The notes under the pieces were generated by a model. That model had not been told where the DNA came from and made no database searches. It worked only from the letters and a program-made list of their open reading frames with translations. The position numbers were made by a program, and so were the translations under genes. This document shows positions 11,147-36,765 of a DNA stretch of 64,000 nucleotides, in pieces. Position 1 is the first letter of the stretch; every line of letters starts with the position of its first letter. The DNA is from a virus, in IMG/VR virus record IMGVR_UViG_3300028840_006907, positions 288,001 through 352,000 of that record. One strand, written 5' to 3'.

Positions 11147-11176
11147 ATTTACATATAGATATTGAAAGGAGATTGT

Positions 11177-12151: not shown

Positions 12152-12154
12152 CTT

Positions 12155-12856: not shown

Positions 12857-12865
12857 GAGGATAAA

Positions 12866-17141: not shown

Positions 17142-17155
17142 TAGGAGGACGAAGT

Positions 17156-18151: not shown

Positions 18152-19052
18152 AATAGGAATTCGATGTGATTGTGGACCGGTAATGGGCATGGGTCATATA
18201 TCTAGGCAGAAACTTATTTATGAAGAACTCATGAAATTGGACCACGAAGTTTCTTTTTTTGTAAAAAGAGAACGGAACATAGTTAAATCAATGGGACTTC
18301 CACTTTCAAATAAGATTTTAATGGATACAATGGATACTTTGATAATTGATTTAGTGGAAGGTTTTGAGGATTATGATTTTCCTCGAACTAAAATAGTTTT
18401 TTATGATGGTCCGGAAATGATACATTGTGATGCTGATATCATTTTTGCTTTAAATTATAAACAACAGAAATCCTGGTATAGAGGAACGGGTTATTATGTT
18501 GGGCTAGATTATATCCCGATGGATCCCAGCATTTCTAAAATAGAGAAAGAATTTGGTAATTTAGAAAAAATATTAATTATGACAAGTGGAATCGATCCTT
18601 GGGATATGCCAGGACAAATAGTTAGAGTTATTAAGGATCTGGGTTATGACATCACAGTTAAATTATCTAATGCTTATCCAAAAGATTGGATCAGTAAACT
18701 TGAGAAACATGCTGAGATAATTTTAAATGTGGATAGTGTTGCTTCATTATATGAAGAATATGATTTAATGATATGTACTGCAGGAAATGTGTTGTTCGAG
18801 GCTGCTGTAGCTGGTTTACCCTGTATAAGTTTTTCGACGGGTAAAGTTCAGGAGGGCCATGGGGCGTTTATGAGTGACAAAGGTTTTTCAGTTCATCTTG
18901 GAGGCTTTTGGAATAATACTGCTGAAGTTGGTTATTTGTCTGATGCTATAAAATTTTTAGCTGATAGATCGGATAGAGAACAAAGATCTGAGATAGGTCG
19001 TTCTATTTGTGATGGTAAAGGATTAGAAAGGATAATAAATATTATAGGGTAA
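18144..19052 (+). CDS. PseG/LegG-like UDP-sugar hydrolase (GT28-like fold)
   Basis: 'IGIRCDCGPVMGMGHISRQ' resembles the PseG N-terminal Gly/His loop. Sits between the NeuB-like and cytidylyltransferase genes. Confidence 0.45.
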   Translation: MSKIGIRCDCGPVMGMGHISRQKLIYEELMKLDHEVSFFVKRERNIVKSMGLPLSNKILMDTMDTLIIDLVEGFEDYDFPRTKIVFYDGPEMIHCDADIIFALNYKQQKSWYRGTGYYVGLDYIPMDPSISKIEKEFGNLEKILIMTSGIDPWDMPGQIVRVIKDLGYDITVKLSNAYPKDWISKLEKHAEIILNVDSVASLYEEYDLMICTAGNVLFEAAVAGLPCISFSTGKVQEGHGAFMSDKGFSVHLGGFWNNTAEVGYLSDAIKFLADRSDREQRSEIGRSICDGKGLERIINIIG

Positions 19053-19055
19053 AAT

Positions 19056-19718
19056 ATGAAAACTATCGCATTTACATTGCCAGTAAGAAAGAACAGTCAA
19101 AGAGTAAAAAATAAAATGTTAAGACCTTTTGCAGGGAGAAGTTTATTTGAGATCTATTTGGATAAAATCGAATGTTTCAAACATTTGGTTTATGTTGTTG
19201 CCTATGAAGAAGAATTTATTAACATAGCTAAAAAAAGGGGATTTAAATATCTTCATAGAAGTGAAGAGTCTGCTAATGGGGAAACTTCTCCAGTTATCCA
19301 TAGTTATTTAAATGAGATGAAAGAAGATTTCATTTTTATGGCAACTGCGTGTTGTCCTTTGATGAAGACAGAGACTTTGAAAAATATCATGGTAGAGCTA
19401 TGTTCAAAACTCCATGATCCTAATTATCACGGTTTAATAACTGTAAAAAGATGTGGTAATGCTATTTGGAATTCAGAGAAGAAAGTAATGAATGATGATG
19501 TTCGAACTTTCAATACTAAGTTAAGAAAACCTTTTTACATCGAGACTAGTTCCGTTTTTGTTTTTAGACGTGAAAGATTTCTTAAACTAGGTGCATATTG
19601 GGATTTTGGTGATAAAGATCCCGATCTTTATGAAATTAATTCAATTGAAGCTACTGATATTGATACAATGGATGATTTCGAAGTAGCTGAAATACTTTAC
19701 AAAAGAAGGTTGTCATGA
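19056..19718 (+). CDS. CMP-nonulosonic acid synthetase (acylneuraminate cytidylyltransferase family)
   Basis: 'IAFTLPVRKNSQRVKNKMLRPFAG' is the CTP_transf_3 N-terminal motif. Confidence 0.65.
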   Translation: MKTIAFTLPVRKNSQRVKNKMLRPFAGRSLFEIYLDKIECFKHLVYVVAYEEEFINIAKKRGFKYLHRSEESANGETSPVIHSYLNEMKEDFIFMATACCPLMKTETLKNIMVELCSKLHDPNYHGLITVKRCGNAIWNSEKKVMNDDVRTFNTKLRKPFYIETSSVFVFRRERFLKLGAYWDFGDKDPDLYEINSIEATDIDTMDDFEVAEILYKRRLS

Positions 19719-20374
19719 AAAATTATGGCTATGCTGATATGAGTGAAAAAGAAAAATTATCTAAAGAACAAGTATTAGAATTTTGGAAAAATCCTATAAA
19801 CGATAATACTAATAAAAATGAGAACAATGATCCTGAGCATTATTTGAGTGGGGAAAAACGTAGCCGATATCTCGTTGAATTAATTAAAAGGCATTTACAT
19901 AAAGAAGCAAAAATATTAGAGATTGGTTGTAATGTCGGGAGGAATTTGCATTATCTATATGAAACAGGTTATAACAATTTAAATGGGATAGAAATTAATG
20001 ATAATGCTGTTCAAGTGATGCATAAAAATTATCCCGAATTATATGGAAGTGTAGGAATTTATAATTGTCCGGTTGAATCTATTATTACATCTTTTTCCGA
20101 TGAAGCCTATGACTTGGTCTTTACAATGGCTGTTTTAGAGCACATTCATTATGAGAGTGATTTCATTTTCTCTGAGATAGCTCGGGTAGCCAAAAGATGT
20201 ATAATTACAATTGAAGATGAAAAAACTACCTGGAGTAACAGACATTTTCCTCGTAATTATAAGGAGGTGTTTGAGAAGATCGGGAATTGGGTACAGATTT
20301 ATGATATGAATTGTGGTGGGATTAATATACTTGATGATCGATTTTGGGTAAGGGTATTTAAAAAGAATGTCTAA
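19715..20374 (+). CDS. class I SAM-dependent methyltransferase
   Basis: Motif I 'ILEIGCNVGRNL'. Post-I acidic 'LVFTMAVLEHI'. Confidence 0.75.
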   Translation: MKNYGYADMSEKEKLSKEQVLEFWKNPINDNTNKNENNDPEHYLSGEKRSRYLVELIKRHLHKEAKILEIGCNVGRNLHYLYETGYNNLNGIEINDNAVQVMHKNYPELYGSVGIYNCPVESIITSFSDEAYDLVFTMAVLEHIHYESDFIFSEIARVAKRCIITIEDEKTTWSNRHFPRNYKEVFEKIGNWVQIYDMNCGGINILDDRFWVRVFKKNV

Positions 20375-21161: not shown

Positions 21162-21737
21162 ATGAATTTATTTGAATCTGCGTACTATACTGAAGAGGAT
21201 CTGAGAAAAGGCGGTTTTAAAAGTGTCGGTAAAAATGTTCAGATTGATAAAAGTTGCACGATAATAGGCTTAGATAAAATCACTCTAGGAGATAATGTTC
21301 GAATCGATGGTTACTGTTGTATTATTGCCACAAAAGAGGAAGTGATTTTCGGTTCTTATATTCATATAGGTTCGTTTTGTCATCTCTGTGGAACTGCAGG
21401 TCTTATAATGAAAGATTTTTCAGGTTTGTCACAAGGAGTTCGAATTTACTCCTCTTCTGATGATTATTCAGGAAAGTTTTTAACTAATCCAACTGTTCCC
21501 GATAAATACACAGGTATAATAAGAGAACCAGTTATTATAGGTAAACATGTTATAATCGGGGCTAATACTGTTATTCTTCCAGGAGTTGTTATAGGTGATG
21601 GGTCAGCTATTGGTGCCATGTCCCTTGTAACAAAAGACGTAGATAAAAATAGTGTCTATGCAGGTTGTCCAGCGAAATTTATAAAAACACGTTCAAAAAG
21701 AATATTTGATTTAGAGAAGAGGTTATTAAATGAATAA
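21162..21737 (+). CDS. hexapeptide-repeat (LbH) sugar acetyltransferase
   Basis: Repeating [LIV]G-x-x-x-x hexapeptides: 'IGANTVILPGVVIGDGSAIGAMSLV'. NeuD/PglD-like size. Confidence 0.8.
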   Translation: MNLFESAYYTEEDLRKGGFKSVGKNVQIDKSCTIIGLDKITLGDNVRIDGYCCIIATKEEVIFGSYIHIGSFCHLCGTAGLIMKDFSGLSQGVRIYSSSDDYSGKFLTNPTVPDKYTGIIREPVIIGKHVIIGANTVILPGVVIGDGSAIGAMSLVTKDVDKNSVYAGCPAKFIKTRSKRIFDLEKRLLNE

Positions 21738-22443
21738 ATCAATTTTCATATGTTCAGGAGGTCGATGTGGTACACATTGGGTTCGGCCTATTCTTGCTCA
21801 GCTTTTAGATTTACAAACTGGGTTTGATTGGAAAGGATATAATCCAAATAAAATTCCCTTTAAAACAGAACCTGGAGCTATTTGGAAAATAAAGATGGTA
21901 GAAAAGAGAGAGCCAGGAGGAAGGATTTATTCAGGGCATATGCCAATTACAGAACTTCTACCTATTATCAGTTTAGTAAATATAATAATTCTTATAAGAG
22001 ATCCTAGAGATATGTGTGTTTCGGCTGCATATTATACTCCAGAAAGAAGAGTATTAACTCAAGAAGAATTTGAATCTAAATTTAATAATTTATTAATACA
22101 AGGAAGCCCGAATCCTGATTTTCATGAATCTTATATAGAAAGTAAGAATAAAATACCTCATTTTTTATTAAAATATGAAGATATGATTCATGATGATTAT
22201 GGCTCAATAGTTAAATTTTTAAATAATTCAGGTTATAAATTTGAAGAAGAAAAATTAAAATATGTACTTGATAAAAACTCATTCAAGAATTTATCAGGTG
22301 GACGAGAAGCCGGTGAGGAGGATAATACCGCTTTTTATAGAAAAGGTATTGTGGGTGATTGGGTAAATTATCTCTCTAATGGTTTACTTGAACAATATAC
22401 CGATAGGCATAAAACTTTGTTGGAAGAATGGGGGTATATGTAA
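21730..22443 (+). CDS. sulfotransferase family protein
   Basis: 'IFICSGGRCGTHW' is 5'-PSB-like. 'IRDPRDMCVSAAYY' matches the 3'-PB motif well (R-x-P-x-D-x-x-V-S-x-Y). Confidence 0.6.
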   Translation: MNKSIFICSGGRCGTHWVRPILAQLLDLQTGFDWKGYNPNKIPFKTEPGAIWKIKMVEKREPGGRIYSGHMPITELLPIISLVNIIILIRDPRDMCVSAAYYTPERRVLTQEEFESKFNNLLIQGSPNPDFHESYIESKNKIPHFLLKYEDMIHDDYGSIVKFLNNSGYKFEEEKLKYVLDKNSFKNLSGGREAGEEDNTAFYRKGIVGDWVNYLSNGLLEQYTDRHKTLLEEWGYM

Positions 22444-26195: not shown

Positions 26196-26963
26196 ATGAT
26201 AGATGCGAAAAGAGTCGTTTTTTCATACTTAAATTTAAAAGTTGCCAAAGATATGACACCAGAAGAGGCAAAGAAAATAGTGGATAAAATGCCTCCAGGA
26301 AGATTTGATAAAATTAAAAAATTGTTACAGCCTTTTGCTAGATTGTTTAAAAAATCTTTTAATGTAAGAGATGCTGGTGTCCTTGATACTTTAGGAAAAT
26401 TAAGTAGGGCTAAGGGAATTCCTCTTGTTGAATTGTTAGCAGTAGCTTCTATCATGTTTGGTGCTACTGTTCCGTCTTATGCTGACACTGCTAAAGAAAA
26501 AGCTCCAATAGTTCAAGTAAAAGAGAAAAGGCCCATTTCTGAGGTAAGAGCGGATCTAGAAAAAGTTTTTGAATTACCAAAAGGTTTAATGACTCTTGTA
26601 AAAGTTACTCCTCAATTAGCAATAAATTTAAAAGGTATAGATGGATTTGTAGAGACCGTGGGTAAAAATCTCGATAAGAGTATAACTCCTGAAGTTTCAG
26701 TATTGTTAAATCAAGTCCCAGATAATCAATGGCCTGAATTATTGTCTGGTTTAGTAATGCAGAAAATTCAAGAAGATGATAAAGTTGATAAGAAATTTAA
26801 AAAGTTTATTAAACACCATAAAACTAGCCCTCAAAATATGAAAAAAGAGATAGCAAAAGTTGTCTCACAAGAGAAATCTGGCATTCAAAAATTTGTTGAT
26901 AAAGGCATGGCTGAGAAGGGCCTAGCTAAAAAAGCCCATGAAAGAGGCTATTTAATTTCATAA
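26196..26963 (+). CDS. hypothetical K-rich protein
   Basis: RBS-like 'aaaagggg' upstream. No motif. Confidence 0.45.
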   Translation: MIDAKRVVFSYLNLKVAKDMTPEEAKKIVDKMPPGRFDKIKKLLQPFARLFKKSFNVRDAGVLDTLGKLSRAKGIPLVELLAVASIMFGATVPSYADTAKEKAPIVQVKEKRPISEVRADLEKVFELPKGLMTLVKVTPQLAINLKGIDGFVETVGKNLDKSITPEVSVLLNQVPDNQWPELLSGLVMQKIQEDDKVDKKFKKFIKHHKTSPQNMKKEIAKVVSQEKSGIQKFVDKGMAEKGLAKKAHERGYLIS

Positions 26964-27496
26964 ATAGCTGTCTTTGTAGTTTTCATACCGAAAAGTTTAA
27001 ATGGATATTTCCCTAAAAACAATTCTATTGCATCTTGGTATACGTATTCTACAGGATTTTGAAGAATTATAATTCCTCCTTTTCTCACTTTTGGAACAGC
27101 CTCTTTGATACAAGAAGATCTTGATCTACCATTTATGAAAATGATATCAAAAGAATGATCAGCAAAGTTATTTATATAATTTACATAGTCTCTAAAATTC
27201 TTATATAAATAAGCCGGTACAGTACTTCCGAAGCTCTCATGGCTGTAAGGAAAGGGTTTAGGGTCATCGATAGGTTCTATTAATTCATAAGTAAAATTTC
27301 CTTTATTAGGTCCTATCTGTTTTTTTAATGTCTCATATGTTTCTCTGTCATGTTCCACTGATACTACAGCTTTAACAGTTCTTCTGAAATAAATAGTAGA
27401 ATCTCCTGATCCATATTCAAAAGTGATCATGTCATATTCAATGAAACTTTTTAACCAGTCTATAGCTTCAGGTTCAATTGGGGGGTAAACTTCCAT
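26948..27496 (-). CDS. putative class I methyltransferase-like protein
   Basis: 'FEYGSGDSTIYF' is a Gly-rich motif I. 'FDIIFINGRSR'. 'VRKGGIIILQN'. Confidence 0.45.
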   Translation of the reverse strand: MEVYPPIEPEAIDWLKSFIEYDMITFEYGSGDSTIYFRRTVKAVVSVEHDRETYETLKKQIGPNKGNFTYELIEPIDDPKPFPYSHESFGSTVPAYLYKNFRDYVNYINNFADHSFDIIFINGRSRSSCIKEAVPKVRKGGIIILQNPVEYVYQDAIELFLGKYPFKLFGMKTTKTAIYEIK

Positions 27497-27856
27497 TTAT
27501 TCTTCCTCTATTCTTTTTAGTCCAATATTTCCAAGTTCTTCATCATTAAGTTTTTCTAATTTTATATGTTCATTCATGATAATTACATAAAATGGAATAT
27601 CAATAGATGATTGAAAGATGTCAATTAAATCTTGTGCTTGTGCCTCGGTAACAGGCATTTTAGGTCTTATAATGACAAGATCATCTTCTTTCAATTGTAA
27701 CTTTTCTAATTGGTAATTTATAACGATGTTTTCTACATATTGTTCAGCTACCTCTTTTGGATTGTGGCTCAAAGTATATCCGCATTTGTCACATTTGCCT
27801 GTATAAAAATCGATAGCTTCATCTCTACATTCAGGGCATTCTATTTTTTTATCCAT
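27497..27856 (-). CDS. hypothetical zinc-ribbon protein
   Basis: 'CPECRDEAIDFYTGKCDKCGY' is CxxC...CxxC. Confidence 0.4.
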   Translation of the reverse strand: MDKKIECPECRDEAIDFYTGKCDKCGYTLSHNPKEVAEQYVENIVINYQLEKLQLKEDDLVIIRPKMPVTEAQAQDLIDIFQSSIDIPFYVIIMNEHIKLEKLNDEELGNIGLKRIEEE

Positions 27857-27858
27857 TT

Positions 27859-28485
27859 CTAAAATTTCCTTTCTACAGTATCTTTGAATTTAATCATTTT
27901 CCCAGTTCCGGTTCCTATGTGAGGAAAAGGAGTTTCAAATTCATATTTAATGACACATTTTGGCCAAGTCATGGTTGATTTTCCTCTTCTTTGTACTTTT
28001 GTTGTTGTCACACTTCTATTGTTATCTTCTATAATGAATGTGCAAGGTAAATCCCAACCATCTACATAACGAACAGCTTCATAAAAATGTCCTTCATCTT
28101 CAGCTCCATCTCCAATAAAACACCATACTTTATTTTTGCTTTTCTCCATTTTTAAAGATAAGGCTATTCCGGTAGCTATAGAAGCGGTTCCTGCTAGTAT
28201 AGAAGATGACAGGAAATTTAATTTTTTATCGAAGACATGCATTGAATCCCCGTTTAATAATATCTTTTCAAGATCTTTTTCATTTCCTCCTGCTAGTAAA
28301 TAATGGTAGTGGGATCGATGGGTAGAAAGAATATAATCTCCTTCATTAACTTTTTTGAATATTTCAATAATTTGATCTTCATTTCCTCCATTTAAATATA
28401 TCAAATAAGGAAGAAGCCCTTCTTCAAAGAGTTCAATTACTCTCTTTTCAAAAGAGATAAGTTCATTTTTTGTTTTATTAAACAT
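27859..28485 (-). CDS. transketolase-like TPP-binding subunit (N-terminal half)
   Basis: 'GDGAEDEGHFYEA...IIEDNN' is the TPP GDG-x(n)-N motif. 'STHRSHYH'. Confidence 0.75.
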   Translation of the reverse strand: MFNKTKNELISFEKRVIELFEEGLLPYLIYLNGGNEDQIIEIFKKVNEGDYILSTHRSHYHYLLAGGNEKDLEKILLNGDSMHVFDKKLNFLSSSILAGTASIATGIALSLKMEKSKNKVWCFIGDGAEDEGHFYEAVRYVDGWDLPCTFIIEDNNRSVTTTKVQRRGKSTMTWPKCVIKYEFETPFPHIGTGTGKMIKFKDTVERKF

Positions 28486-29545
28486 AGTTATCTCCGTAAC
28501 ATTCTATTATTTGATGTATTATCTTATTTTTTGCCTCATTAGCACATTGATGTGTACAAGATATGTCAGGTCTAAAATTTTGAAAGAAATTTTCTGTATC
28601 TCGTGAGAACCAGGTTTCACTGAATTTTTTATTTTTAATGGATCCTACCAATCCTTTTGGAGAATAAGCCATATTGTGACAAGTATAGATATTGAGATCA
28701 GCTCCAATTACAGGTACTATTAACGAGAAGAAACATTTTTTGTATTCTCTTTTATTTACCATAGGAGATATATTGTAACTGTCAAAAACATCAATACCTT
28801 CAATTTGACTAGCATATATAGTATCCAATTGTTCTCTTACTTGATATTTAATGGTATTGTGATAGTTATAAAAATCAGGAACCCACACCGGGGAGAATCG
28901 TATATTATCTACACCCATTTTATGTACAAGTTGAAAAGCTTCTATTAAGAATTCACAATTTTCTTTTGTTATGATATAGTTGACCCCGAGATTACAGGAA
29001 CTTTCTTTTTTTGAAAAGTTAAGAACATTTTCTACTATTTGATGAAACATTTTAGGGGATGCTTTTCTCGATTCGATAAAACTTTTTTCATCCCAGTAAT
29101 CGATAGAAACTCTAATCCATTTAGCATGAGTCATAATATCAGCTATGTTTCCACTGAGGAATTGACCATTTGTTAATATGGAAAGATCTATTTTACACTC
29201 AAGAGTTTTTTCAAGTATTTTCTCAATACCTTTATGAATTAATGGCTCTCCTCCACCAGAATAGGTAATAGCTTTAACACCAATGTCTTGAAGATCCTCT
29301 AATATTTCCATCATCTTTTCTGTGGGAATTTCATCCACTCTTTTCATATCGTCATGCATTTTAGAAAAGGAATAGTTGTACACACAGAAGTAACAATTAT
29401 GACAACATCTATTGGTAGGTTTTATTCTGACATAGATAGGAGAAGTTACAACATCATTTCGAAACGATTTCAATTTATCAGGAAACCACACTATTTTATA
29501 GTTGTTGTATTTATTATTCATTGTCATAGAAACCTCGTGTTTCAA
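28478..29545 (-). CDS. radical SAM enzyme
   Basis: 'IKPTNRCCHNCYFCVY' is CxxxCxxC. 'GGEPL' glycine motif. Possible extra Cys cluster 'CTHQCANE'. Confidence 0.8.
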   Translation of the reverse strand: MKHEVSMTMNNKYNNYKIVWFPDKLKSFRNDVVTSPIYVRIKPTNRCCHNCYFCVYNYSFSKMHDDMKRVDEIPTEKMMEILEDLQDIGVKAITYSGGGEPLIHKGIEKILEKTLECKIDLSILTNGQFLSGNIADIMTHAKWIRVSIDYWDEKSFIESRKASPKMFHQIVENVLNFSKKESSCNLGVNYIITKENCEFLIEAFQLVHKMGVDNIRFSPVWVPDFYNYHNTIKYQVREQLDTIYASQIEGIDVFDSYNISPMVNKREYKKCFFSLIVPVIGADLNIYTCHNMAYSPKGLVGSIKNKKFSETWFSRDTENFFQNFRPDISCTHQCANEAKNKIIHQIIECYGDNYV

Positions 29546-30038
29546 TTAGCATCATAGAGGTTTCCCATTTTGCTGCCTCTTTATAATGGTATAAAATTTC
29601 TTCTGAGTTATTTAATCTGATAACAGGAAAATCTACCATTTTCGATACAGCTTCAGTATGGTCCTGGACATGAGTTATGCAACTATATAAAGGTTTTTCT
29701 TTTTTCCCAATGACAACTCTTATAATCACTTTAGGATCGTAATCACCGTTTGACATAACTTTTATTTTGTCTAAATGATTTACTATTGAATCTAGTGCAT
29801 TTAAAACAAAATCAAATCGTTCAAAATAAACAATTGGTTTGTATCCTCTGATGCTCATTCCTATGGCCATTCCTGCCATTAAGTTCTCGGCTACAGGTGT
29901 TTCGATTAATTGAGATTCCGGAACATCAATTAAGGTATTAGCTGCTCTAGTGTATTTTGTATTATATCCTATAAATACTGTTTTTTCTTGTTTAGCCAAT
30001 TCATTCATCGAGTATTTAAGAGCATCTATATATCGCAT
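29514..30038 (-). CDS. transketolase-like pyrimidine-binding subunit (C-terminal half)
   Basis: 'ETPVAENLMAGMAIGMSIRGYKPIVY' matches the transketolase Pyr domain. Confidence 0.7.
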   Translation of the reverse strand: MRYIDALKYSMNELAKQEKTVFIGYNTKYTRAANTLIDVPESQLIETPVAENLMAGMAIGMSIRGYKPIVYFERFDFVLNALDSIVNHLDKIKVMSNGDYDPKVIIRVVIGKKEKPLYSCITHVQDHTEAVSKMVDFPVIRLNNSEEILYHYKEAAKWETSMMLIETRGFYDNE

Positions 30039-30656
30039 CTATTTAACCTTTTCTTTTGGTGTAATAATCAGATAACCTTGGTCTCGGTAATCTTTTGTGA
30101 CATCGTGTGTCTCTTTAAACATTTCAACAATGTAATTAGTACCATTTAAACCGTATTTAGGTCTGAAGTATCTGTAACGTGCTATTAAATTACCTGTTTC
30201 AAATGGCCCATCTTCATGATGATTTAGATCATCAATAATCATGACGTCTTTACCTTTTCGATATTTTTTTATCATTTCGAGTTCTAAGTTTAAAGGAAAT
30301 TTCAATCTTTTTGGAAGATCTTCATCATAGTGATGTCCATCTATCTGAAAGTCAGCTCCGGGAAAATGAGCATCTAAAAAGAAAAGAACTACATCAGTTT
30401 CTTTAACTTCATTTTTAAATAGTGATTCGAGTCCTACTGGAGATTCACAATTCAAAAAATTAATTCGTGGGTCTACAATATTTTTTGAGGTTTCATTGAA
30501 AAGTTTTTCGATAATTTCAATAGAGTGTATTTTTTCAAAAGGAAATCCTAATGCATATGTTACTCCTTCTCCTTTTCCCGTACCTGTCTCTATCATAATA
30601 TTGCATCCGTAATCTCTGATATACTCATCAAGTTTATGCTTGTTTAGAGTTCCCAT
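30039..30656 (-). CDS. methyltransferase-like protein (paralog of 32001..32615)
   Basis: 'IETGTGKGEGVTYAL' and 'VLFFLDAHFPGADF' are shared with the paralog. Confidence 0.4.
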   Translation of the reverse strand: MGTLNKHKLDEYIRDYGCNIMIETGTGKGEGVTYALGFPFEKIHSIEIIEKLFNETSKNIVDPRINFLNCESPVGLESLFKNEVKETDVVLFFLDAHFPGADFQIDGHHYDEDLPKRLKFPLNLELEMIKKYRKGKDVMIIDDLNHHEDGPFETGNLIARYRYFRPKYGLNGTNYIVEMFKETHDVTKDYRDQGYLIITPKEKVK

Positions 30657-31513
30657 TATATTTCCCTTTGGTTAAAGTTTGGTGTATAAAATTGTTGAAT
30701 CGCTTTATAATCATGTGGTAAAAAGTATTTCTTTATCCATGTATATGTAGGCATTCTATTGTAGATATTTTGATCATGAGTTTTTATGAATAATTTATGA
30801 GGAGGAAGTACTTTACAACATAAAATAGCACAGAAAGAATCGCACCCAACATAATAACCTGCGTATTTTGACAGGGCTATTATTGAAGTTAAAGGAATGT
30901 CTTTTGGGGCTATGAAATGATTTAAAGTAGGTGCAACAGGTGTGTCTGAAATAATGAGAACCTTTAAGCCAGTCTTTATTGACAGGTTATTTATAAATTC
31001 CCAATCATCATTATTGATAACCGCTATATCACTTCGTGGTCTTGAAGAGGTTGGATAGTGCATTAAGATATATTTAAAAGGTTCTATTTTTAATCCATTC
31101 CAATCAATATCATCAACACTAGCGCTCATTAAAAATGATGACCCTTGAAAAGTTCTATTGGTATCCATTATCATTGGTACCATGTCTACGGGACGTACAT
31201 CATCTTCAGGTTTTATATTAAGTAATTCTTTTCCTATTGTGTAATCAGGTTCGATGTCAGATCTAAAATGCCAGAAGGTATCTTTTATCGGGCTAGATTG
31301 AAAGGTCCTTCTCATATTTTTTCTACCTACTTCTTCATCTATGAAGTGATGCTTTTTTACTCTGTAATAGATATTATGATCAATTATAGGAGCTATGCAT
31401 TTCCCAAATCTGCATGGCCAGTATATTTCAGTTATAGATTCTCTTTCTTTTTGAGTCATTAAAGCATCGATACACATCATATCTCCGATGCCGACAGAGA
31501 AGTAAATTTTCAT
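30656..31513 (-). CDS. hypothetical protein
   Basis: ORF in operon. Starts 'VGIGDMMCIDAL'. Confidence 0.4.
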   Translation of the reverse strand: MKIYFSVGIGDMMCIDALMTQKERESITEIYWPCRFGKCIAPIIDHNIYYRVKKHHFIDEEVGRKNMRRTFQSSPIKDTFWHFRSDIEPDYTIGKELLNIKPEDDVRPVDMVPMIMDTNRTFQGSSFLMSASVDDIDWNGLKIEPFKYILMHYPTSSRPRSDIAVINNDDWEFINNLSIKTGLKVLIISDTPVAPTLNHFIAPKDIPLTSIIALSKYAGYYVGCDSFCAILCCKVLPPHKLFIKTHDQNIYNRMPTYTWIKKYFLPHDYKAIQQFYTPNFNQREI

Positions 31514-32001
31514 TATTTTTCTCCAAAAATCATAAATGAGTGAAATAGGTCCCTTTCGGAAGCATAAATATTTTTATAGCCTTTGTTTTTCATGTAATCT
31601 TGGATAATTTTAGGTGTAAAGATATGCCTATGTTTTCTATTGTTCCATGGCCTCCAATATTCTTGTTCATAATGAGGAAGGTATAAGAACAATATCCCTC
31701 CTTCTTTTAAAATTTCATACCAATAATCCATGGCATCTATCCAGTTTTCGATATGTTCTAAGCAATGACTTGAGAAGACATAATCGACATCTTTCTTTGG
31801 TAAATTTAAAGCATGATACCCATCATCGAAGATTAGGTCAATAGGAATAGCTCCAGGTAAAGCCCAGGATCCTTTTCTGCATCCTATGTCATAACCTGTA
31901 CCTTTACATAATTGTTGGGCATAAGGTATAGCGAATTTGGCTGCATAACCTTCTGCTTGAAAATGGGGGTAAAATTTATTATTGAATTCTATTAATTCCA
32001 T
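31513..32001 (-). CDS. class I SAM-dependent methyltransferase
   Basis: 'YDIGCRKGSWAL' is motif I. 'VFSSHCLEHI' is post-I. Confidence 0.65.
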   Translation of the reverse strand: MELIEFNNKFYPHFQAEGYAAKFAIPYAQQLCKGTGYDIGCRKGSWALPGAIPIDLIFDDGYHALNLPKKDVDYVFSSHCLEHIENWIDAMDYWYEILKEGGILFLYLPHYEQEYWRPWNNRKHRHIFTPKIIQDYMKNKGYKNIYASERDLFHSFMIFGEK

Positions 32002-32615
32002 TATTCCTCTCGTTTTGGTGTTATTATCATATATCCTTGTGATTGGAAATCTCTAGTAAGAGAATGTGTCTTTCCGAATGCATCAAAAAGGAATTTTGAT
32101 CCGGAGGTAGGAGATATTTCATGGGCTAAAGTATTCGGTCCATCTGTAAAGGGGCCACTCTCATAAAGGCGTAAATCATCAGTTATAATTATATCATTTG
32201 TGACATCTTTTAAAGATGTGATTACTTCTACTTCTTTCTCACATGGGAGTCTCGTATTATAATCAGGTTCACTATTATAATAGGTATAATGGAAGTCAGC
32301 TCCTGGGAAATGAGCATCTAAAAAGAACAGTGTGTTGCCTTTCAAGTCCTTTATGATTTCGGGCAGAATTTTAAATGAGTTACCGTGATAAATTTTACAA
32401 TTTTTCCCTTTTTCTTTTGATAGAGCATCAAATTTTTTTACTGCTTTTTTATATATCTGATCATAAATCTCTATTGAATAAAAATTTTCAAAGGAATAAT
32501 TTAATGCATATTCCAAGCAATCACCTTCACCGGTACCAGTTTCAACATAATTTTTGAGGTTAAACGATTTAATCCATTTTTCCATTTCTGTAATAACTTG
32601 ATTTATGTGTCCCAT
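32001..32615 (-). CDS. methyltransferase-like protein (paralog of 30039..30656)
   Basis: 'VETGTGEGDCLEYAL' and 'LFFLDAHFPGADF'. Confidence 0.4.
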   Translation of the reverse strand: MGHINQVITEMEKWIKSFNLKNYVETGTGEGDCLEYALNYSFENFYSIEIYDQIYKKAVKKFDALSKEKGKNCKIYHGNSFKILPEIIKDLKGNTLFFLDAHFPGADFHYTYYNSEPDYNTRLPCEKEVEVITSLKDVTNDIIITDDLRLYESGPFTDGPNTLAHEISPTSGSKFLFDAFGKTHSLTRDFQSQGYMIITPKREE

Positions 32616-32623
32616 TTAATTCC

Positions 32624-33286
32624 TTATCTATAATTGTAATTGACTTTGAATAAGTCTTTGAGGTGGTAATAGTTCTTTGGTCCCCATCTTGAAAAGAGAT
32701 CAATCTTTTTTGCCTTTAAAGTAAGCTTTTCCATTATGTAATTAAACACTGTATCGATTAATTGAATCTCTTCAGCATTTTCAATTACTTTGGACCAATC
32801 AATTACATTAAAACCTTCATAAAGAGTATTATCTATTATTCTTAAATTAGTGGTAATTGGTATGGGAAAACATTTACTATGAGGAGGAGTACCATAATGA
32901 ATATTTCTAAAGACATATCTCTCATTATCTTTTAAACCTAGTATTTTATAATAAAGTTCATTTTCTTTCTTAGGGAATCTTTTAAAATTAAAGTAATTGG
33001 TCCAATCCCTGTGATCCAGTCCTACTAATTTATACTTTCCTTCCATGATAGGACCTGGAATTATTTGATCCGCATTTTGTAGATCTACATAGAGGTCTAT
33101 ATTATCGGGTTGGCCAAGAGGTACGAATTCGACTCCTGGGCTTATGAGGTAATCATTATACCATAAAAATTCTTTTCTGACGGGCCATTTTACTTGATAG
33201 CCTTGGTGCACAAAGTGCTGACCAATTTTTTGACAGAAAAAGACATCTCCAATGCCAGCCGGTTGATTTATTACGCATAGTTTCAT
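32624..33286 (-). CDS. hypothetical protein
   Basis: ORF in operon. 'AGIGDVFFCQK' is weakly similar to the N-terminus of 30656..31513. Confidence 0.4.
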   Translation of the reverse strand: MKLCVINQPAGIGDVFFCQKIGQHFVHQGYQVKWPVRKEFLWYNDYLISPGVEFVPLGQPDNIDLYVDLQNADQIIPGPIMEGKYKLVGLDHRDWTNYFNFKRFPKKENELYYKILGLKDNERYVFRNIHYGTPPHSKCFPIPITTNLRIIDNTLYEGFNVIDWSKVIENAEEIQLIDTVFNYIMEKLTLKAKKIDLFSRWGPKNYYHLKDLFKVNYNYR

Positions 33287-34090
33287 TTATCCAATAATAT
33301 CCTTTAAGTATTTGTCGTATAAGATATCTTCAATTATGTCATACTGTAAGGCAATTTTGAAATTATTCTCAATATATTCCATCAAGGAATAATACAATTC
33401 AGGGGATAAATCCGATACATCAAAGTCATCTTTTAATGTTATGATACCACGACTATCAAAAAACTCTCCTACATCGGGACTCCCATGATATACTGGAACT
33501 GTACCAGTAGTAAAACAGTCCAATATTTTTTCAGTCCAGTAAGTTTCATATTGTGAATTTTCAATTGTAACGGAGAACATGTAATCTACCAGAGCAATTT
33601 CTTTTTTCTCTATTTCATTAAACCCTCTGCCGTAAAGATCTAATTTATCTCTTAATTTATTTACCCATGCTAGTCTGAAATTATGGCCAGCACACATCCT
33701 TTTAGCAGAACTCATCATTGAGGCTAATTTAGTCTTCTTATAAATTTTAGGTTCCTTTATCCAGTACCCGTGAGAGGTGATGTAATGGAAATTATCTGCA
33801 AGGCTGTAGATTCTTTTGTCATGGGTAAATAGGAGAGGATAGGATTCTGAAATTTCTTTTGCATGGGCTATTATGTTGTCTATTACATTAGGAATAATTG
33901 AACTGGATTCTACTACCCAGGCAATTTTATTCGTTTTATTATTTATGTTCGGAACTATTTGTTCATCTACGAAAAAAGTCAGATCTTCTTGTTTACCTTT
34001 AGACCAATCAAAGTACGTAGGTTTTTTCCATAGTGTAGAAGAATAAGCATGTTGGAACCAACCACCTATAAGTCCTATTTTCTTTTTCAT
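33287..34090 (-). CDS. GT10-like (alpha-1,3-fucosyltransferase family) glycosyltransferase
   Basis: 'YMFSVTIENSQYETYWTEKILDCFTTGTVPVYHGS' matches the GT10 signature (FENSxxxxYxTEK...VPVxxG). Confidence 0.5.
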   Translation of the reverse strand: MKKKIGLIGGWFQHAYSSTLWKKPTYFDWSKGKQEDLTFFVDEQIVPNINNKTNKIAWVVESSSIIPNVIDNIIAHAKEISESYPLLFTHDKRIYSLADNFHYITSHGYWIKEPKIYKKTKLASMMSSAKRMCAGHNFRLAWVNKLRDKLDLYGRGFNEIEKKEIALVDYMFSVTIENSQYETYWTEKILDCFTTGTVPVYHGSPDVGEFFDSRGIITLKDDFDVSDLSPELYYSLMEYIENNFKIALQYDIIEDILYDKYLKDIIG

Positions 34091-34710
34091 TACAGACCGC
34101 CCTTGATATAGAATGCATCACCCCATGTCCCTCCATCCCATGTGGTCTCAGCTCTTTCAAAACCGTATTTTGAAAGGAAAGAATCCAACTCAGTTACCAT
34201 GCAACAATTTTCATAGACTTGATCACGATTTACTTCAGCAATGATATAGTCAATCTTTCTTAATGTCTCTGTGCCCCCTTTAAAAACTTCCAGCTCAAAT
34301 CCCTGGACATCAATATTAATGAGGTTGCTAAAATCAGAAAAATAAAAGTTGTCTAATTTTTCTACTCTTATCTCATCCGATTCTTCAAACTTAATATGTG
34401 GGTACTGTCTTAAATGTATCAGTGGTTTTAATAAGGAGCTAGATTCTCCTTGATTGGATGATTTATAGAAAGTCTTAAAACATTCTTCCGGACCTAAAGC
34501 AATGTTATAAATTCTTACTCTAGAGTCGTCTTTGATATTCTCGTATAGTACTTTAAAGGAATCTGGATCGGGTTCGAAAAAGTTCATCTCTTTTATTGAA
34601 TCATATTTTATATAAATTTTATATTCTTCCCCATAATGGGCTCCTATATGAATGATCCCAGTAACATTCATGTCGTATTTGTTTATTAATCTATCGAAAT
34701 CAAGTAGCAT
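34090..34710 (-). CDS. FkbM-family methyltransferase
   Basis: 'IIHIGAHYGEEY' and 'IDVQGFELEVFKGG' are the FkbM-domain hallmarks. Confidence 0.65.
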   Translation of the reverse strand: MLLDFDRLINKYDMNVTGIIHIGAHYGEEYKIYIKYDSIKEMNFFEPDPDSFKVLYENIKDDSRVRIYNIALGPEECFKTFYKSSNQGESSSLLKPLIHLRQYPHIKFEESDEIRVEKLDNFYFSDFSNLINIDVQGFELEVFKGGTETLRKIDYIIAEVNRDQVYENCCMVTELDSFLSKYGFERAETTWDGGTWGDAFYIKGGL

Positions 34711-36765
34711 TTAATCCTCCCACTTAAGTTCAATCTCTTGATGTGGGGAAATATTTTTTACCCCTTTAATATTTCTGATAGATAGTTTACGGCCTTCCAA
34801 ATATTTCTGATTAAATTCTCCTGCTGAAATATTACCATGTCTGTTAGGGTAAGCTCCAACAAGATTTACAGGTATATTAACAATTTTAGATTCGTCATAA
34901 CAGAGCATCATAGGTCTTTCTGGAATCTGTTTCATAAGAGCATCTTCGAAAGTATTAGGATTGTTATAGGTACCGTTTTTTATTGCACTCATTAAATCAG
35001 GTGTACGATAGATATTTCCATCAACACTCATGGGATACCCCCAATCCCCGGCATAATTTTTCCATTCCCATTTATTTTCTGAAGAAAGATCGGGAGGCGG
35101 AGATGGTATGTTTTGGGGATAACAGAAATTGATCCTAGAGCATAATCTCAAAGAGATGCTTAAGATCTCATCTGGATTTAATTTGTCAAAGTCATTTCTT
35201 AATTTGTACGGTTCTTTGAATACAATGTCATCAACTAAAAACATTGTATATTCTTTTTCGGTATTTACAGCATTTATAACTGAATCTTTAAAATCATTAG
35301 TTTGTTTATAAAAGTAGAATCCTGGATGATCTGAGATAACTTTATCATAACCAGCTTTAAAATCATCGTTACTGTATGTCCATATAATAGTTATTTTGAA
35401 TTCGTACCAGTTTTCCCAAAGTTCCTTTATACTTCTTAATAATAAATCTAGTTGACATGCCCGATCTTTACTGAAAATAACAACATTCATATTTTTTAGT
35501 CTTTTATAGGGAGGTCTTTGGAAGATCCCATGAGCACAGTCCCTCTGTGTAGACCCTCTTTTATGGTCATTGACATCACTTTCAGTATTATAGATGTAGT
35601 TAAATGAAGTTAATAATTTAGCGTGTGAAGGACCTGCCATTTCGAGCATGGGTATCATGAATGACAAATCTCCTGCCATATGCCAGAAAGTGTCACCAGA
35701 GATAAAATCTCTTTTATCTATTTTTCTAAACAGCCATGTTTTAAAGGTCCTTAAATGAGTGGCTCTCCAGTCGGTGGTTTTTCTGAGAAGGTCCCAATTG
35801 GGCATTTTTGCCCATCCATCTCGTTCACCTCTTCCATTATATTCTCTAAATTGTCCGAATGAGATCCAGGTATCCGGGTCTTTATAAGCTTCAAGGACTC
35901 TTTCAAAAACCTTATTGTCATCTGGTAGCCAGTCATCTCCATCAATATTTATACAAATATCTTGATTATTAATTTCGGGTCTATGTAAAGTATGATAATA
36001 ATTTCCGCTGACATATCTTTTTTCGGTATTATTTATAATAACAAATCGATCATCTCCGTAAGTATGCCTTTCAATAAAATCAAGACTGTTATCTGTAGAT
36101 AGGTCATTACAGATATAACATTTCCAGTTTCTTACTGATTGGTTTTTTATACTGTTGATACATCGGATAATGTATTTACCTGCATTCCAACATGGAGTGA
36201 CAATTCGTAATGTATTTTTTTCTTCTTGATATTCTTGTAACACTTTGACTTCAGGTTTGGTCTCTTCTTTTTGGATACTCTTTTTTCGAACAACAATTTC
36301 GAAGGACCATTCTCCGTACATTTTTAAGTCGTAACGTTCATGATGGATAAGTTCTACACCACCTATTTTTTGAAGAATTTCCCAGAGATCTTCCCAGCCA
36401 AAATGATGGATATGTTTTTTGTTACATCTTGGATCATCTAATGGATGATAATATTCTTTGTCTACTTGGTAGAGGACTAGATATCCATCATCTTTGAGTA
36501 TTCTGAGCCACTCTCTGAGGGTTGCTTCGGTATCATATATTTCTTCCAATAAATGACTGGAATAGACATAATCAAAATGTTTATCAGGGTAGCAGGGCAT
36601 GAGACGGGCGTCTATGGGCATGTCTGCGAAAGGACTTAAAAGATCTATCCCTATAGCATCAATTTTTATTTTTGTATTACCACAGCCTAAGTCAACTCCT
36701 TGACCTTGACAGTATTTGAGTAATCTATTTCTGCAATTATCTGTTTCTCCTTTATGTCTTTCCAT
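34711..36765 (-). CDS. bifunctional class I methyltransferase / GT2 glycosyltransferase
   Basis: N-terminal 'VDLGCGN...YVYSSHLLEEI'. Central 'LRIVTPCWNAGKYIIRCINSIKNQ...CNDLSTDNS' is GT2. 684 aa. Confidence 0.75.
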   Translation of the reverse strand: MERHKGETDNCRNRLLKYCQGQGVDLGCGNTKIKIDAIGIDLLSPFADMPIDARLMPCYPDKHFDYVYSSHLLEEIYDTEATLREWLRILKDDGYLVLYQVDKEYYHPLDDPRCNKKHIHHFGWEDLWEILQKIGGVELIHHERYDLKMYGEWSFEIVVRKKSIQKEETKPEVKVLQEYQEEKNTLRIVTPCWNAGKYIIRCINSIKNQSVRNWKCYICNDLSTDNSLDFIERHTYGDDRFVIINNTEKRYVSGNYYHTLHRPEINNQDICINIDGDDWLPDDNKVFERVLEAYKDPDTWISFGQFREYNGRGERDGWAKMPNWDLLRKTTDWRATHLRTFKTWLFRKIDKRDFISGDTFWHMAGDLSFMIPMLEMAGPSHAKLLTSFNYIYNTESDVNDHKRGSTQRDCAHGIFQRPPYKRLKNMNVVIFSKDRACQLDLLLRSIKELWENWYEFKITIIWTYSNDDFKAGYDKVISDHPGFYFYKQTNDFKDSVINAVNTEKEYTMFLVDDIVFKEPYKLRNDFDKLNPDEILSISLRLCSRINFCYPQNIPSPPPDLSSENKWEWKNYAGDWGYPMSVDGNIYRTPDLMSAIKNGTYNNPNTFEDALMKQIPERPMMLCYDESKIVNIPVNLVGAYPNRHGNISAGEFNQKYLEGRKLSIRNIKGVKNISPHQEIELKWED

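Follow-up and report, generated by a model that had tools for sequence, protein, structure and literature searches.

Three overlapping open reading frames lie on the minus strand of the window (the whole stretch of DNA analysed here, 64,000 nucleotides at positions 288,001 to 352,000 of IMG/VR virus record IMGVR_UViG_3300028840_006907). In strand order, they encode a protein with only the Pyr (pyrimidine-binding) domain of a TPP enzyme (29514..30038, 174 aa; matched by Transket_pyr and PRK09212), a radical SAM enzyme whose C-terminal domain is putatively of the SPASM/twitch type (28478..29527, 349 aa; Radical_SAM 5.8e-17) and a protein with only the PP (diphosphate/TPP-binding) domain (27859..28485, 208 aa; E1_dh 1.3e-19). 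The Pyr and PP proteins are referred to below as mini-E1 beta and mini-E1 alpha. The positions and order given for these genes by the initial annotation were confirmed, as was its claim that they overlap: read from the sequence, the beta stop and the radical SAM start have 14 nt in common (ATGACAATGAATAA), and the radical SAM stop overlaps the alpha start by 8 nt (ATGTTTAA). The radical SAM frame can be extended to a TTG at 29545, giving 355 aa. Its homologues favour the ATG at 29527, which gives 349 aa, and a database protein of that length (P0001) is 100% identical to the window enzyme.

Identity of the TPP-enzyme halves

The Pyr and PP proteins had been described as halves of one transketolase-like TPP enzyme. 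We found that they do carry the PP (TPP-binding) and Pyr domains of such an enzyme, but the likeness to transketolase holds at the superfamily level only, the best matches being E1 alpha and beta subunits of 2-oxoacid dehydrogenases. E1_dh was the best Pfam match of alpha, which also matched DXP_synthase_N (8.1e-8) and, at 1.6e-26 and 93 bits against a cut-off of 393.85, the NCBIfam model PDH_E1_alph_y. The sole Pfam domain match of beta was Transket_pyr (1.8e-6). It matched the NCBIfam model PRK09212 (PDH E1 beta) over profile positions 6-172 of 327 (8.9e-17; 61 bits, cut-off 321), and its PDB matches were E1 beta chains, with matched residues confined to about 5-113. Both halves fall within a single PHROG family, phrog_34187, alpha at positions 7-202 (4.7e-68) and beta at positions 237-404 (1.7e-51). 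Alpha-family proteins from archaea, bacteria and phages share 60-70% identity.

The cofactor motifs of E1 enzymes are recognizable in both halves. Alpha possesses the TPP motif GDG-X(~26)-NN (GDGAEDEGHFYEAVRYVDGWDLPCTFIIEDNN), in which GDGAEDEG...EDNN is the counterpart of GDGAANQG...ENN in human E1 alpha, and G125, D126, G127 and N155 were invariant among 17 homologues. Its HLxGGNE and HRSH segments correspond to HLCDGQE and YRAHG of the human chain. In beta, Glu51 of ETPVAEN aligns with the Glu of DTPLAES in Geobacillus E1 beta and of DTPISEM in human E1 beta; we take it to be the catalytic, cofactor-activating residue.

Compared with full-length E1 alpha, the C-terminal 40% of alpha is missing; its family profile covers residues 44-208 of the 365-residue human chain 1ni4_A. 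The phosphorylation loops and the lipoyl-directed His of E1 alpha lie beyond about residue 208 of that chain. Beta is without the Transketolase_C domain (the C-terminal, E2-docking domain), and neither E2 nor E3 genes were found near the cassette. Judged by sequence, the two halves are thus a truncated 'mini-E1' nearest to pyruvate dehydrogenase E1 alpha/beta, keeping the TPP motif and the predicted catalytic Glu and having apparently lost every part needed for lipoyl/E2 coupling.

Three other assignments were rejected. An ordinary split transketolase of central metabolism (tktA/tktB), clustering with which would by its own account have refuted the initial annotation, was not indicated: alpha gave no Transketolase_N match, Transketolase_C was likewise absent, and the transketolase equivalogs scored 19-33 bits against cut-offs of 488-575. 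A YerE-type TPP enzyme was represented by TPP_enzyme_C only (4.1e-4; 20.6 bits, below the 21.9 cut-off), with no match to TPP_enzyme_N or TPP_enzyme_M. Split TPP enzymes of the phosphonopyruvate/sulfopyruvate decarboxylase type belong to a family built of TPP_enzyme_N/C domains, and no PEP mutase gene was seen among the annotated neighbour proteins.

Features of the radical SAM protein

The protein encoded between the two halves has a CX3CX2C cluster motif within a partial TIM-barrel core. Its overall fold resembles that of DesII, the best single fold match, and BlsE (a decarboxylase) was also among the top fold matches. Sequence identity to DesII and BlsE is 13-19% (13% for DesII), and the NCBIfam model rSAM_BlsE scored 40.6 bits against a cut-off of 400. 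Four Cys in the C-terminus (C265, C283, C324 and C328) are invariant and suggest an auxiliary Fe-S cluster. SPASM domain PF13186 is precomputed for many homologues; the window protein itself has no SPASM Pfam match. We describe the enzyme as a DesII/BlsE-like core joined to a putative twitch/SPASM-type domain with one candidate cluster.

Glycan genes in the window

The initial annotation placed the three genes in a sugar-tailoring module, and this setting was borne out by a large glycan-tailoring island with glycosyltransferases, methyltransferases and a nonulosonic-acid pathway (PseB/PseC-type enzymes and NeuB are encoded in the window). All neighbours named here are on the minus strand. Upstream of beta lie a methyltransferase-like gene (30039-30656; clustering family nf27, no Pfam match) that is a paralogue of another at 32001-32615 (Methyltransf_4 7.7e-6), a gene for a 285-aa protein with no Pfam match (30656-31513) and a class I methyltransferase gene (31513-32001; Methyltransf_23 2.9e-12). 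These four genes (30039..32615) separate beta from a compact GT9-like (GT-B) glycosyltransferase gene (32624..33286, 220 aa), whose family is found immediately upstream of beta in many other loci. Further upstream are genes for a GT10-like glycosyltransferase (33287-34090; Glyco_transf_10 1.7e-9), an FkbM methyltransferase (34090-34710; Methyltransf_21 1.4e-17) and a methyltransferase+GT2 fusion (34711-36765; Glycos_transf_2 2.4e-19). The GT10-like family (nf12) recurs beside the cassette in 5 and the FkbM family (nf6) in 8 of 65 dereplicated loci.

Downstream of alpha, the genes at 27497-27856 (a Cys-rich CxxC...CxxC protein of 119 aa; phrog_18156, unknown function, 3.1e-6) and 26948-27496 (a possible methyltransferase of 182 aa; Methyltransf_24 0.0058, below the cut-off) are of uncertain membership in the module, and neither turned up as a conserved neighbour in other loci. 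The five flanking methyltransferases previously listed are therefore real in outline, but the product of 30039-30656 lacks a Pfam match and that of 26948-27496 has a sub-threshold one only. The window cassette contains no SDR and no sugar kinase, isomerase or phosphatase partners. Ten large ORFs of the window had no matches in PHROG scans. The 735-kb phage LR756501 carries all three genes in the same order, with 64.6% nucleotide identity over the alpha-rSAM segment; this resemblance and the size of the source contig are what suggest a phage origin for the window.

Recurrence of the cassette

The initial annotation did not recognize the arrangement, which proves not to be a one-off: this trio of genes was met in well over 100 independent loci, a recurrence far beyond chance. 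The alpha half alone had 358 IMG/VR matches. To assess linkage, we took the 36 metagenome loci that the radical SAM profile had retrieved and whose flanks reached 3 kb or more on each side. Both mini-E1 halves lay no more than 3 kb from the radical SAM gene in 28 of them, and seven of the remaining eight contained some TPP-enzyme gene, L146 being the only locus without any. These seven have a split transketolase-like TK_N plus Pyr beside the radical SAM gene (L110, L117), an alpha-type half with a Pyr or Pyr+TK_C gene (L120, L123), alpha and beta adjoining a second copy of the radical SAM gene (L153), or alpha/beta at 4-5 kb from it (L144, L150). Elsewhere its partners are full-length E1 alpha/beta (L107), TK_N+Pyr (L102) or fused TK_N+Pyr (L121), and some radical SAM loci encode true split-transketolase-type halves (Transketolase_N 4.5e-24, Transket_pyr 1e-17). 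That one radical SAM family pairs with several versions of the TPP superfamily points to a link in function and not just in history.

Two gene orders, beta>rSAM>alpha and alpha>beta>rSAM, are about equally common; the former accounts for about 55 of the top 80 IMG/VR loci, a set with many near-identical members. The trio is a widespread conserved cassette, and the layout with the radical SAM gene in the middle is just one of the two that are common. Its neighbours include UXS-like and other NDP-sugar epimerases/dehydratases, B12-radical SAM enzymes, FkbM and C-methyltransferases, and glycosyltransferases of the GT2, GT9-like, GT10-like and GT11-like families. An SDR adjoins the radical SAM gene in L102, L107, L110, L117, L120 and L153, and in L150 beta is fused to a NAD-dependent epimerase/dehydratase domain (Epimerase 1.8e-44). 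HHalign found no link between nf3/fam19 and nf4/fam2, the neighbours seen most often upstream (probability 13%), so we do not claim a universal fourth component.

In a clade of ~30-kb phages, the cassette directly follows the coat-protein gene (P22_CoatProtein 9.4e-8), ahead of the head-tail genes, its sole companions being genes for a GT2 protein and an unknown 254-aa protein. In these phages, the substrate must be host-derived or an already attached glycan. Like L002, they carry the cassette without heptose or nonulosonic-acid genes. A genome-contig scan with the single radical SAM protein returned one distant locus (a SAR324 MAG, 35% identity) with no TPP genes. In the plasmid search, alpha retrieved mainly ordinary AcoA/PdhA, and the radical SAM protein retrieved one useful relative, on Solidesulfovibrio carbinolicus pDCAR1, at a locus encoding PseB/PseC-type enzymes. 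No organism of known glycan structure was found among the cassette loci, and no description of the cassette was found in the literature searched.

Fusions among the best 150 alpha-family representatives were limited to alpha-beta, kinase-alpha, intein-containing and homing-endonuclease-like forms, and none joined a radical SAM enzyme to a TPP protein. The fused alpha-beta clade, which T4-like cyanophages carry, has no radical SAM gene and is flanked by a Zn-ADH on one side and an SDR on the other; this fits NAD(P) oxidoreductases carrying out the carbonyl-forming or carbonyl-reducing steps. In cyanophage S-SM2, the fused form lies among heptose-phosphate genes (kinase, isomerase, adenylyltransferase and class II aldolase), and in P0363 an alpha homologue is fused to an APH-like kinase. 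Both cases hint that some members use free or phosphorylated sugars, not NDP-sugars.

Proposed function and alternatives

We tentatively propose, as a reading that is plausible though short of probable, that the three genes form one glycan-tailoring cassette in which the radical SAM enzyme makes a sugar carbonyl and the mini-E1 adds a two-carbon unit to it. What the sequences show is the identity of the domains, the cofactor motifs, the truncations, the close coupling and recurrent company of the genes and their glycan setting; the branched-sugar chemistry, with its substrate, step order, two-carbon donor and product, is what we infer in the following. Alpha (PP) and beta (Pyr) would assemble into a minimal E1-type thiamine-diphosphate enzyme that forms a TPP-bound two-carbon carbanion and does not hand it over to a lipoyl-E2; since such transfer is not possible, the mini-E1 is most likely a carboligase. 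The substrate of the radical SAM enzyme would be a sugar, probably a nucleotide-activated one. The enzyme most likely removes hydrogen at one of the sugar's carbinol carbons, which would become a carbonyl through dehydrogenation or through radical elimination of a neighbouring OH or NH3+. Addition of a pyruvate-derived acetyl/hydroxyethyl unit to the new carbonyl by the mini-E1 would then yield a sugar with a C-branch or, where the carbonyl is an aldehyde, with an extended chain. Methylation of this product could fall to the flanking methyltransferases, and its installation to the GT9-like, GT10-like and GT2 transferases. In favour of this reading are the linkage and overlap of the genes, the intact TPP motifs in halves without E2-coupling parts, the Zn-ADH and SDR beside the fused clade that has no radical SAM gene, the sugar genes around the cassette and the Plm8/Plm9 precedent. 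Weighing against it are the partial nature of the DesII analogy, the lack of an SDR in the window cassette, the sparse company of the cassette in the ~30-kb phages, and the kinase fusion P0363 and heptose-phosphate genes of S-SM2.

Other readings have to be weighed against the proposed carbonyl formation and carboligation. It is rather unlikely that the TPP enzyme acts like transketolase, DXP synthase or an acetoin-cleaving E1 to remodel a backbone, lengthening or shortening a sugar chain by two carbons, with the radical SAM enzyme performing a separate tailoring step. Such remodelling might, for example, affect a heptose or nonulosonic-acid side chain, with a step such as epimerisation, deoxygenation or decarboxylation left to the radical SAM enzyme. 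The split-transketolase-type halves of some radical SAM loci, the DXP_synthase_N match of alpha and the decarboxylase BlsE among the top fold matches speak for it, as do the PseB/PseC-type enzymes of the window and the pDCAR1 locus, NeuB in the window, the S-SM2 fused form among heptose-phosphate genes and the APH-like kinase-alpha fusion P0363. However, the nearest sequence relatives are E1 alpha/beta and not transketolase, sugar kinase, isomerase and phosphatase partners are absent from the window cassette, and the cassette is present in loci without heptose or nonulosonic-acid genes (L002 and the ~30-kb phages). The tight and repeated rSAM-TPP pairing is also better explained by consecutive steps on one intermediate. 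A role in central metabolism, as a pyruvate dehydrogenase E1 or split transketolase acquired as an auxiliary metabolic gene, agrees with the automatic labels of homologues ('pyruvate dehydrogenase E1 component alpha subunit' or 'transketolase central region-containing protein'), yet it is extremely improbable. The halves score far under the equivalog cut-offs (93 against 393.85 and 61 against 321 bits), no E2/E3 genes are nearby and the neighbours are always glycan genes. The truncations, which leave alpha without its C-terminal 40% and beta without the E2-binding domain, effectively refute this reading.

The position of the cassette right behind the coat-protein gene in ~30-kb phages would suit modification of a protein or peptide, in which the radical SAM enzyme acts on a virion or cell-surface protein and the mini-E1 supplies or processes an acyl group. 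We consider this improbable, as nucleotide-sugar enzymes and glycosyltransferases are what is conserved next to the cassette, L150 has beta joined to an NDP-sugar epimerase/dehydratase domain, and DesII, the best single fold match, acts on a TDP-sugar; an unsystematic look beside the cassette noticed neither a conserved small precursor-peptide gene nor a RiPP recognition element. Highly improbable, in our view, is a direct coupling within one complex, whereby a sugar carbon radical made by the 5'-deoxyadenosyl radical would be captured by a one-electron-oxidised TPP enamine with no carbonyl intermediate. The C-C bond would then arise at a carbon that is not activated, with the putative auxiliary Fe-S cluster keeping the electrons in balance. 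If true, it would be a natural 'radical thiamine' acylation, making branched or higher-carbon sugars for the virion and cell-surface glycans of phages and uncultured microbes. The translational coupling of the genes with the radical SAM gene between the E1 halves, the persistence of the pairing across several TPP-enzyme architectures and a putative auxiliary cluster that could shuttle an electron are consistent with it. Against it stand the alpha>beta>rSAM order, which is about equally common, the fused alpha-beta clade that does without a radical SAM gene, and the lack of an rSAM-TPP fusion in the best 150 alpha-family representatives. We know of no natural precedent for it.

If the proposed sequence of carbonyl formation and two-carbon addition is true, the cassette would offer a compact and widespread pathway to C-branched or chain-extended sugars, in which radical SAM catalysis stands in for the usual NAD-dependent keto-sugar chemistry. 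Its mini-E1, with about 380 residues in two chains, would be the smallest E1-type thiamine enzyme seen so far. The viral spread of the family takes in 358 IMG/VR matches, among them LR756501, T4-like cyanophages (fused form) and the ~30-kb phage clade, and being this common in viral sequence it may play a part in glycosylating virions or host surfaces across many environments. Homologues labelled automatically as 'pyruvate dehydrogenase E1 alpha' or 'transketolase' could be miscounted among the auxiliary metabolic genes of central carbon metabolism, a status that their truncations and gene context rule out. The pairing also offers radical SAM enzymology a defined orphan family, with Solidesulfovibrio carbinolicus DSM 3852 as a cultured entry point.

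Related enzymes and pathways

The nearest sequence relatives of the halves, the E1 components PdhA/PdhB and AcoA/AcoB, have in common with them the GDG...NN, HLxxGxE and (Y/H)RxH motifs and the Glu of beta DTPxxE. The cassette differs from them in its glycan context and in lacking the C-terminal part of alpha, the C-terminal domain of beta and E2/E3 genes. The 'transketolase central region-containing protein' of cyanophages S-SM2 and P-TIM68 (phrog_34187) belongs to the same protein family (51% identity for S-SM2). There the halves are fused as alpha-beta, with no radical SAM gene nearby and with a Zn-alcohol dehydrogenase and heptose-pathway genes as flanks.

DesII is a TDP-4-amino-4,6-dideoxy-D-glucose deaminase and BlsE a cytosylglucuronate decarboxylase. 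The solved DesII chains have 460-480 residues, 458-479 of them modelled, whereas the window enzyme has 349 and an extra four-Cys motif. The DesII structure paper describes an N-terminal six-helix domain and a single cluster, with no auxiliary cluster, so the analogy with DesII is only partial.

For the TPP enzyme, the initial annotation had pointed to YerE, which belongs to an acetolactate-synthase-like TPP family; E1 alpha/beta pairs such as Plm8/Plm9 and those of the avilamycin pathway are a better precedent. YerE consists of one FAD-binding chain and falls in the acetolactate-synthase/pyruvate-oxidase TPP family. In yersiniose A formation, YerE/YerF resemble our proposal in that TPP-dependent acetyl transfer from pyruvate to a keto sugar is followed by reduction. 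This branching logic is cited in PMC4802897.

Plm8/Plm9, the avilamycin eurekanate genes and the kosinostatin pathway, likened here by description, share with the cassette separate PDH-E1-related alpha and beta proteins encoded in sugar clusters. Proteins of the Plm8/Plm9 type are roughly full-length E1 subunits, and their 4-keto sugars come from ordinary NDP-hexose 4,6-dehydratase chemistry. To our knowledge, no dedicated radical SAM partner has been described for such pairs. In paulomycin biosynthesis, the E1 alpha/beta-like pair Plm8/Plm9 is credited, as a proposal, with a pyruvate-derived two-carbon branch on a keto-deoxysugar (PMC4802897), and the same paper cites genetic evidence from the avilamycin pathway. 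Compared with these pairs, the alpha (208 aa) and beta (174 aa) of the cassette are single-domain proteins, genetically locked to a radical SAM enzyme.

A minimal two-chain E1 enzyme encoded around a radical SAM gene

The cassette consists of three minus-strand genes in the order proposed by the initial annotation: the Pyr half (beta, 29514-30038), a radical SAM gene (28478-29545) and the TPP-binding half (alpha, 27859-28485). The sequence also bore out that the genes overlap; the overlaps measured are 14 nt between the beta stop and the radical SAM start and 8 nt between the radical SAM stop and the alpha start; with stops and starts overlapping in this way in the window, the genes are translationally coupled. 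Read from a TTG codon, the radical SAM protein has 355 aa (Radical_SAM, 5.8e-17). Because its homologues, among them a 349-aa database entry with 100% identity, begin with MTMNNKY, the true start is almost certainly the ATG at 29527.

The beta half (174 aa) matched Pfam Transket_pyr (1.8e-6) and NCBIfam PDH E1-beta (8.9e-17), and the alpha half (208 aa) matched E1_dh (1.3e-19) and PDH E1-alpha (1.6e-26). Their earlier description as transketolase-like holds at the level of the transketolase/E1 superfamily, within which they come closest to the alpha and beta subunits of heterotetrameric pyruvate/acetoin dehydrogenase E1. The halves are neither a transketolase nor YerE. PDB sequence searches with the halves returned E1 alpha and E1 beta chains only, and we refer to the pair as a mini-E1.

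Both halves are truncated. Of the 365 residues of the human E1 alpha chain, the alpha family profile covers 44-208, where the alignment ends; compared with that chain, alpha keeps the TPP motif GDG...NN and the motifs HLxGGxE and (Y/H)RxH. Beta aligned only over the N-terminal Pyr domain of PDH E1 beta, its Glu51 falling on the Glu of the DTPLAES/DTPISEM motif. Missing are the C-terminal 40% of alpha and the whole C-terminal domain of beta, which in E1 beta docks E2. Scores against the PDH equivalogs were 93 bits for alpha (cut-off, 393.85) and 61 bits for beta (cut-off, 321). Judged from these sequence features, the mini-E1 should be able to form a TPP-bound carbanion but not to feed a lipoyl-E2.

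The alpha family is a compact group of 126 representatives among 1.84 billion proteins (clusters at 50% identity; E<=1e-30). It is unusually conserved, with homologues 57-74% identical to the window alpha across phage, bacterial and DPANN-archaeal sequences. Two fusions were found: P0363, a 552-aa database protein, joins an APH/choline-kinase-like kinase to mini-E1 alpha, and a 514-aa protein of metagenome locus L150 (1136-2680) joins mini-E1 beta to an NAD-dependent NDP-sugar epimerase/dehydratase domain. Among the alpha homologues, P0410 carries an intein-like insert immediately upstream of the GDG TPP motif, and P0438 and P0412 carry LAGLIDADG- or HNH-like N-terminal extensions; with such insertions, the mini-E1 alpha gene appears to be a hotspot for selfish elements.

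The radical SAM enzyme and its putative auxiliary cluster

A CX3CX2C motif (C41, C45, C48) is common to 17 diverse homologues of the radical SAM enzyme, and four more cysteines (C265, C283, C324, C328) are invariant among them, in a spacing that may be BtrN-like. A SPASM domain match is precomputed for many homologues, and none of the curated NCBIfam families scored the window enzyme near its cut-off. The enzyme has a DesII/BlsE-like core and a probable auxiliary cluster. The substrate of DesII is a TDP-sugar, that of BlsE a nucleoside-linked glucuronic acid. With a single cluster, DesII takes H from C3 and gives a 3-keto sugar via deamination or dehydrogenation (PMC11434129). The window enzyme, in contrast, is shorter and has a putative auxiliary cluster, and it was therefore rejected as a DesII orthologue. 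Separately, the homologue in a 199-kb viral contig (L008, 5157-7280; IMGVR_UViG_3300037993_001242) is split by an intein-like insert of ~335 aa lying exactly within the CX3CX2C cluster motif (CNHDCFFC/LVAGT...VVHN/C).

Recurrence of the cassette and association with TPP enzymes

The cassette is not an isolated oddity of the window. DNA and protein searches found all three genes, in the same order and in a similar segment, in the 735-kb phage genome LR756501. A profile search of IMG/VR with alpha gave 358 relatives; in the best 80 loci, many of them near-identical, the order beta>rSAM>alpha (rSAM, radical SAM gene) occurred ~55 times, a fused alpha-beta gene (~395 aa) occurred 15 times, each time without a radical SAM gene within 8 kb, and a few had other orders. 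When metagenomes were searched with the radical SAM profile, 543 relatives emerged, and the 80 kept included 25 with beta>rSAM>alpha and ~20 with alpha>beta>rSAM.

Where at least 3 kb of flank was present on each side, both mini-E1 halves lay within 3 kb of the radical SAM gene in 28 of 36 loci. Only one of the eight exceptions (L146) lacked any TPP-enzyme gene. The others had split transketolase-type halves (L110 and L117; Transketolase_N 4.5e-24, Transket_pyr 1e-17), an alpha-type half with a Pyr or Pyr+TK_C gene (L120, L123), alpha and beta adjoining a second radical SAM copy (L153), or alpha/beta at a distance of 4-5 kb (L144, L150). Further loci paired the radical SAM gene with a full-length E1 alpha/beta pair (L107), with TK_N and Pyr genes (L102) or with a fused TK_N+Pyr protein (L121). 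A cultured relative comes from Solidesulfovibrio carbinolicus DSM 3852, whose plasmid pDCAR1 carries a 34.5% identical radical SAM gene amid transketolase-type genes, methyltransferases, pseB, pseC and a glycosyltransferase. No finding argues more strongly for both enzymes acting in one pathway than this association of one radical SAM family with several TPP-superfamily architectures. In some loci, two paralogous radical SAM copies stand beside a single alpha/beta pair (L010 5875-7998, L153, L158).

Glycan-related surroundings

The window cassette is surrounded by a ~35-kb glycan island. The flanking methyltransferases of the initial annotation were recovered at 31513-32001, 32001-32615 (with a paralogue at 30039-30656), 34090-34710 and the N-terminus of 34711-36765, with a weak candidate at 26948-27496. 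The two minus-strand paralogues (~205 aa) have the common motif (F)LDAHFPGADF; one is a weak Methyltransf_4 match and the other has no Pfam match, and a few further loci also have members of their family close to the cassette.

Elsewhere the island encodes multi-domain GT1/GT2/methyltransferase proteins, among them a 994-aa single chain of GT2, GT1 and class I methyltransferase (4336-7320, plus strand), as well as formyl-, acetyl- and sulfo-transferases and GT10-like and GT2 enzymes. A UDP-glucose dehydrogenase (8931-10280) precedes a complete-looking nonulosonic-acid pathway of pseudaminic/legionaminic type (11162-20374, plus strand), comprising an epimerase, NTP-transferase, formyltransferase, PIG-L deacetylase, 4,6-dehydratase, DegT aminotransferase, NeuB (17132-18151, plus strand) and CMP-transferase (19056-19718, plus strand). 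A Sulfotransfer_1 protein (21730-22443, plus strand; 1.1e-22), adjoining a hexapeptide acyltransferase and methyltransferases, suggests that the glycans are sulfated.

Among 65 dereplicated radical-SAM-type loci, the recurrent neighbours were an unknown 257-aa protein (13 loci), UXS-like NDP-sugar epimerase/dehydratases, B12-radical SAM enzymes and the family of the compact GT9-like glycosyltransferase at 32624-33286 (11 each), a 226-aa SDR (9) and FkbM methyltransferases (8); various glycosyltransferases and C-methyltransferases also recurred. In a clade of small phages of about 30 kb (L011-L065 and related; IMG/VR contigs of ~20-35 kb), the cassette, a GT2 protein of 562 aa and a 254-aa protein of unknown function have been inserted into the stretch that joins the P22-like coat gene to the head-tail genes, a position that hints at virion glycosylation. 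The window itself (32% GC), from a source contig of 388-470 kb and with a cassette segment similar to the 735-kb phage genome, is likely phage DNA; ten large ORFs had no match in PHROG. An 835-aa protein at 53409-55916 (minus strand), with DUF7487 (5.6e-17) and Mom-family (1.2e-10) domains, may be a DNA-modification enzyme.

Proposed pathway and alternatives

We consider the cassette likely to be a module for sugar tailoring whose two enzymes act in one pathway. How they would do so can be proposed only tentatively. The sugar-acting precedents considered here, DesII, BtrN and AprD4, all yield a keto product, and the radical SAM enzyme would create a carbonyl on a sugar. The mini-E1 would then add a pyruvate-derived two-carbon unit, and an SDR, where present, would reduce the adduct. 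The fused alpha-beta form bears on this scheme. It occurs without a radical SAM gene in cultured cyanophages S-SM2 and P-TIM68 and adjoins a Zn-alcohol dehydrogenase; in a neighbor-joining tree of alpha domains, fused forms group together, nested among split forms. Replacement of the radical SAM gene by ADH/SDR genes in this clade fits carbonyl formation followed by two-carbon addition.

Heptose-pathway genes surround the fused form in S-SM2, and heptoses, sugar phosphates or nonulosonic acids would be the substrates if the mini-E1 instead performed transketolase/DXS-like chain extension or acyloin cleavage, which we regard as rather unlikely. Modification of a protein or peptide is improbable, and so is true radical-TPP coupling within one complex; a role in central metabolism is effectively excluded by the truncations of both halves.

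In the literature that we searched, no member is characterised, and a minimal two-chain E1, a dedicated radical SAM family as its obligate partner and its abundance in viral sequence all appear to be undescribed. Two-carbon addition, the step tentatively assigned to the mini-E1, has likewise been proposed for YerE and for E1-like pairs such as Plm8/Plm9 (PMC4802897), and the chemistry proposed for the cassette would vary a known theme, the branching of sugars by TPP-dependent enzymes.
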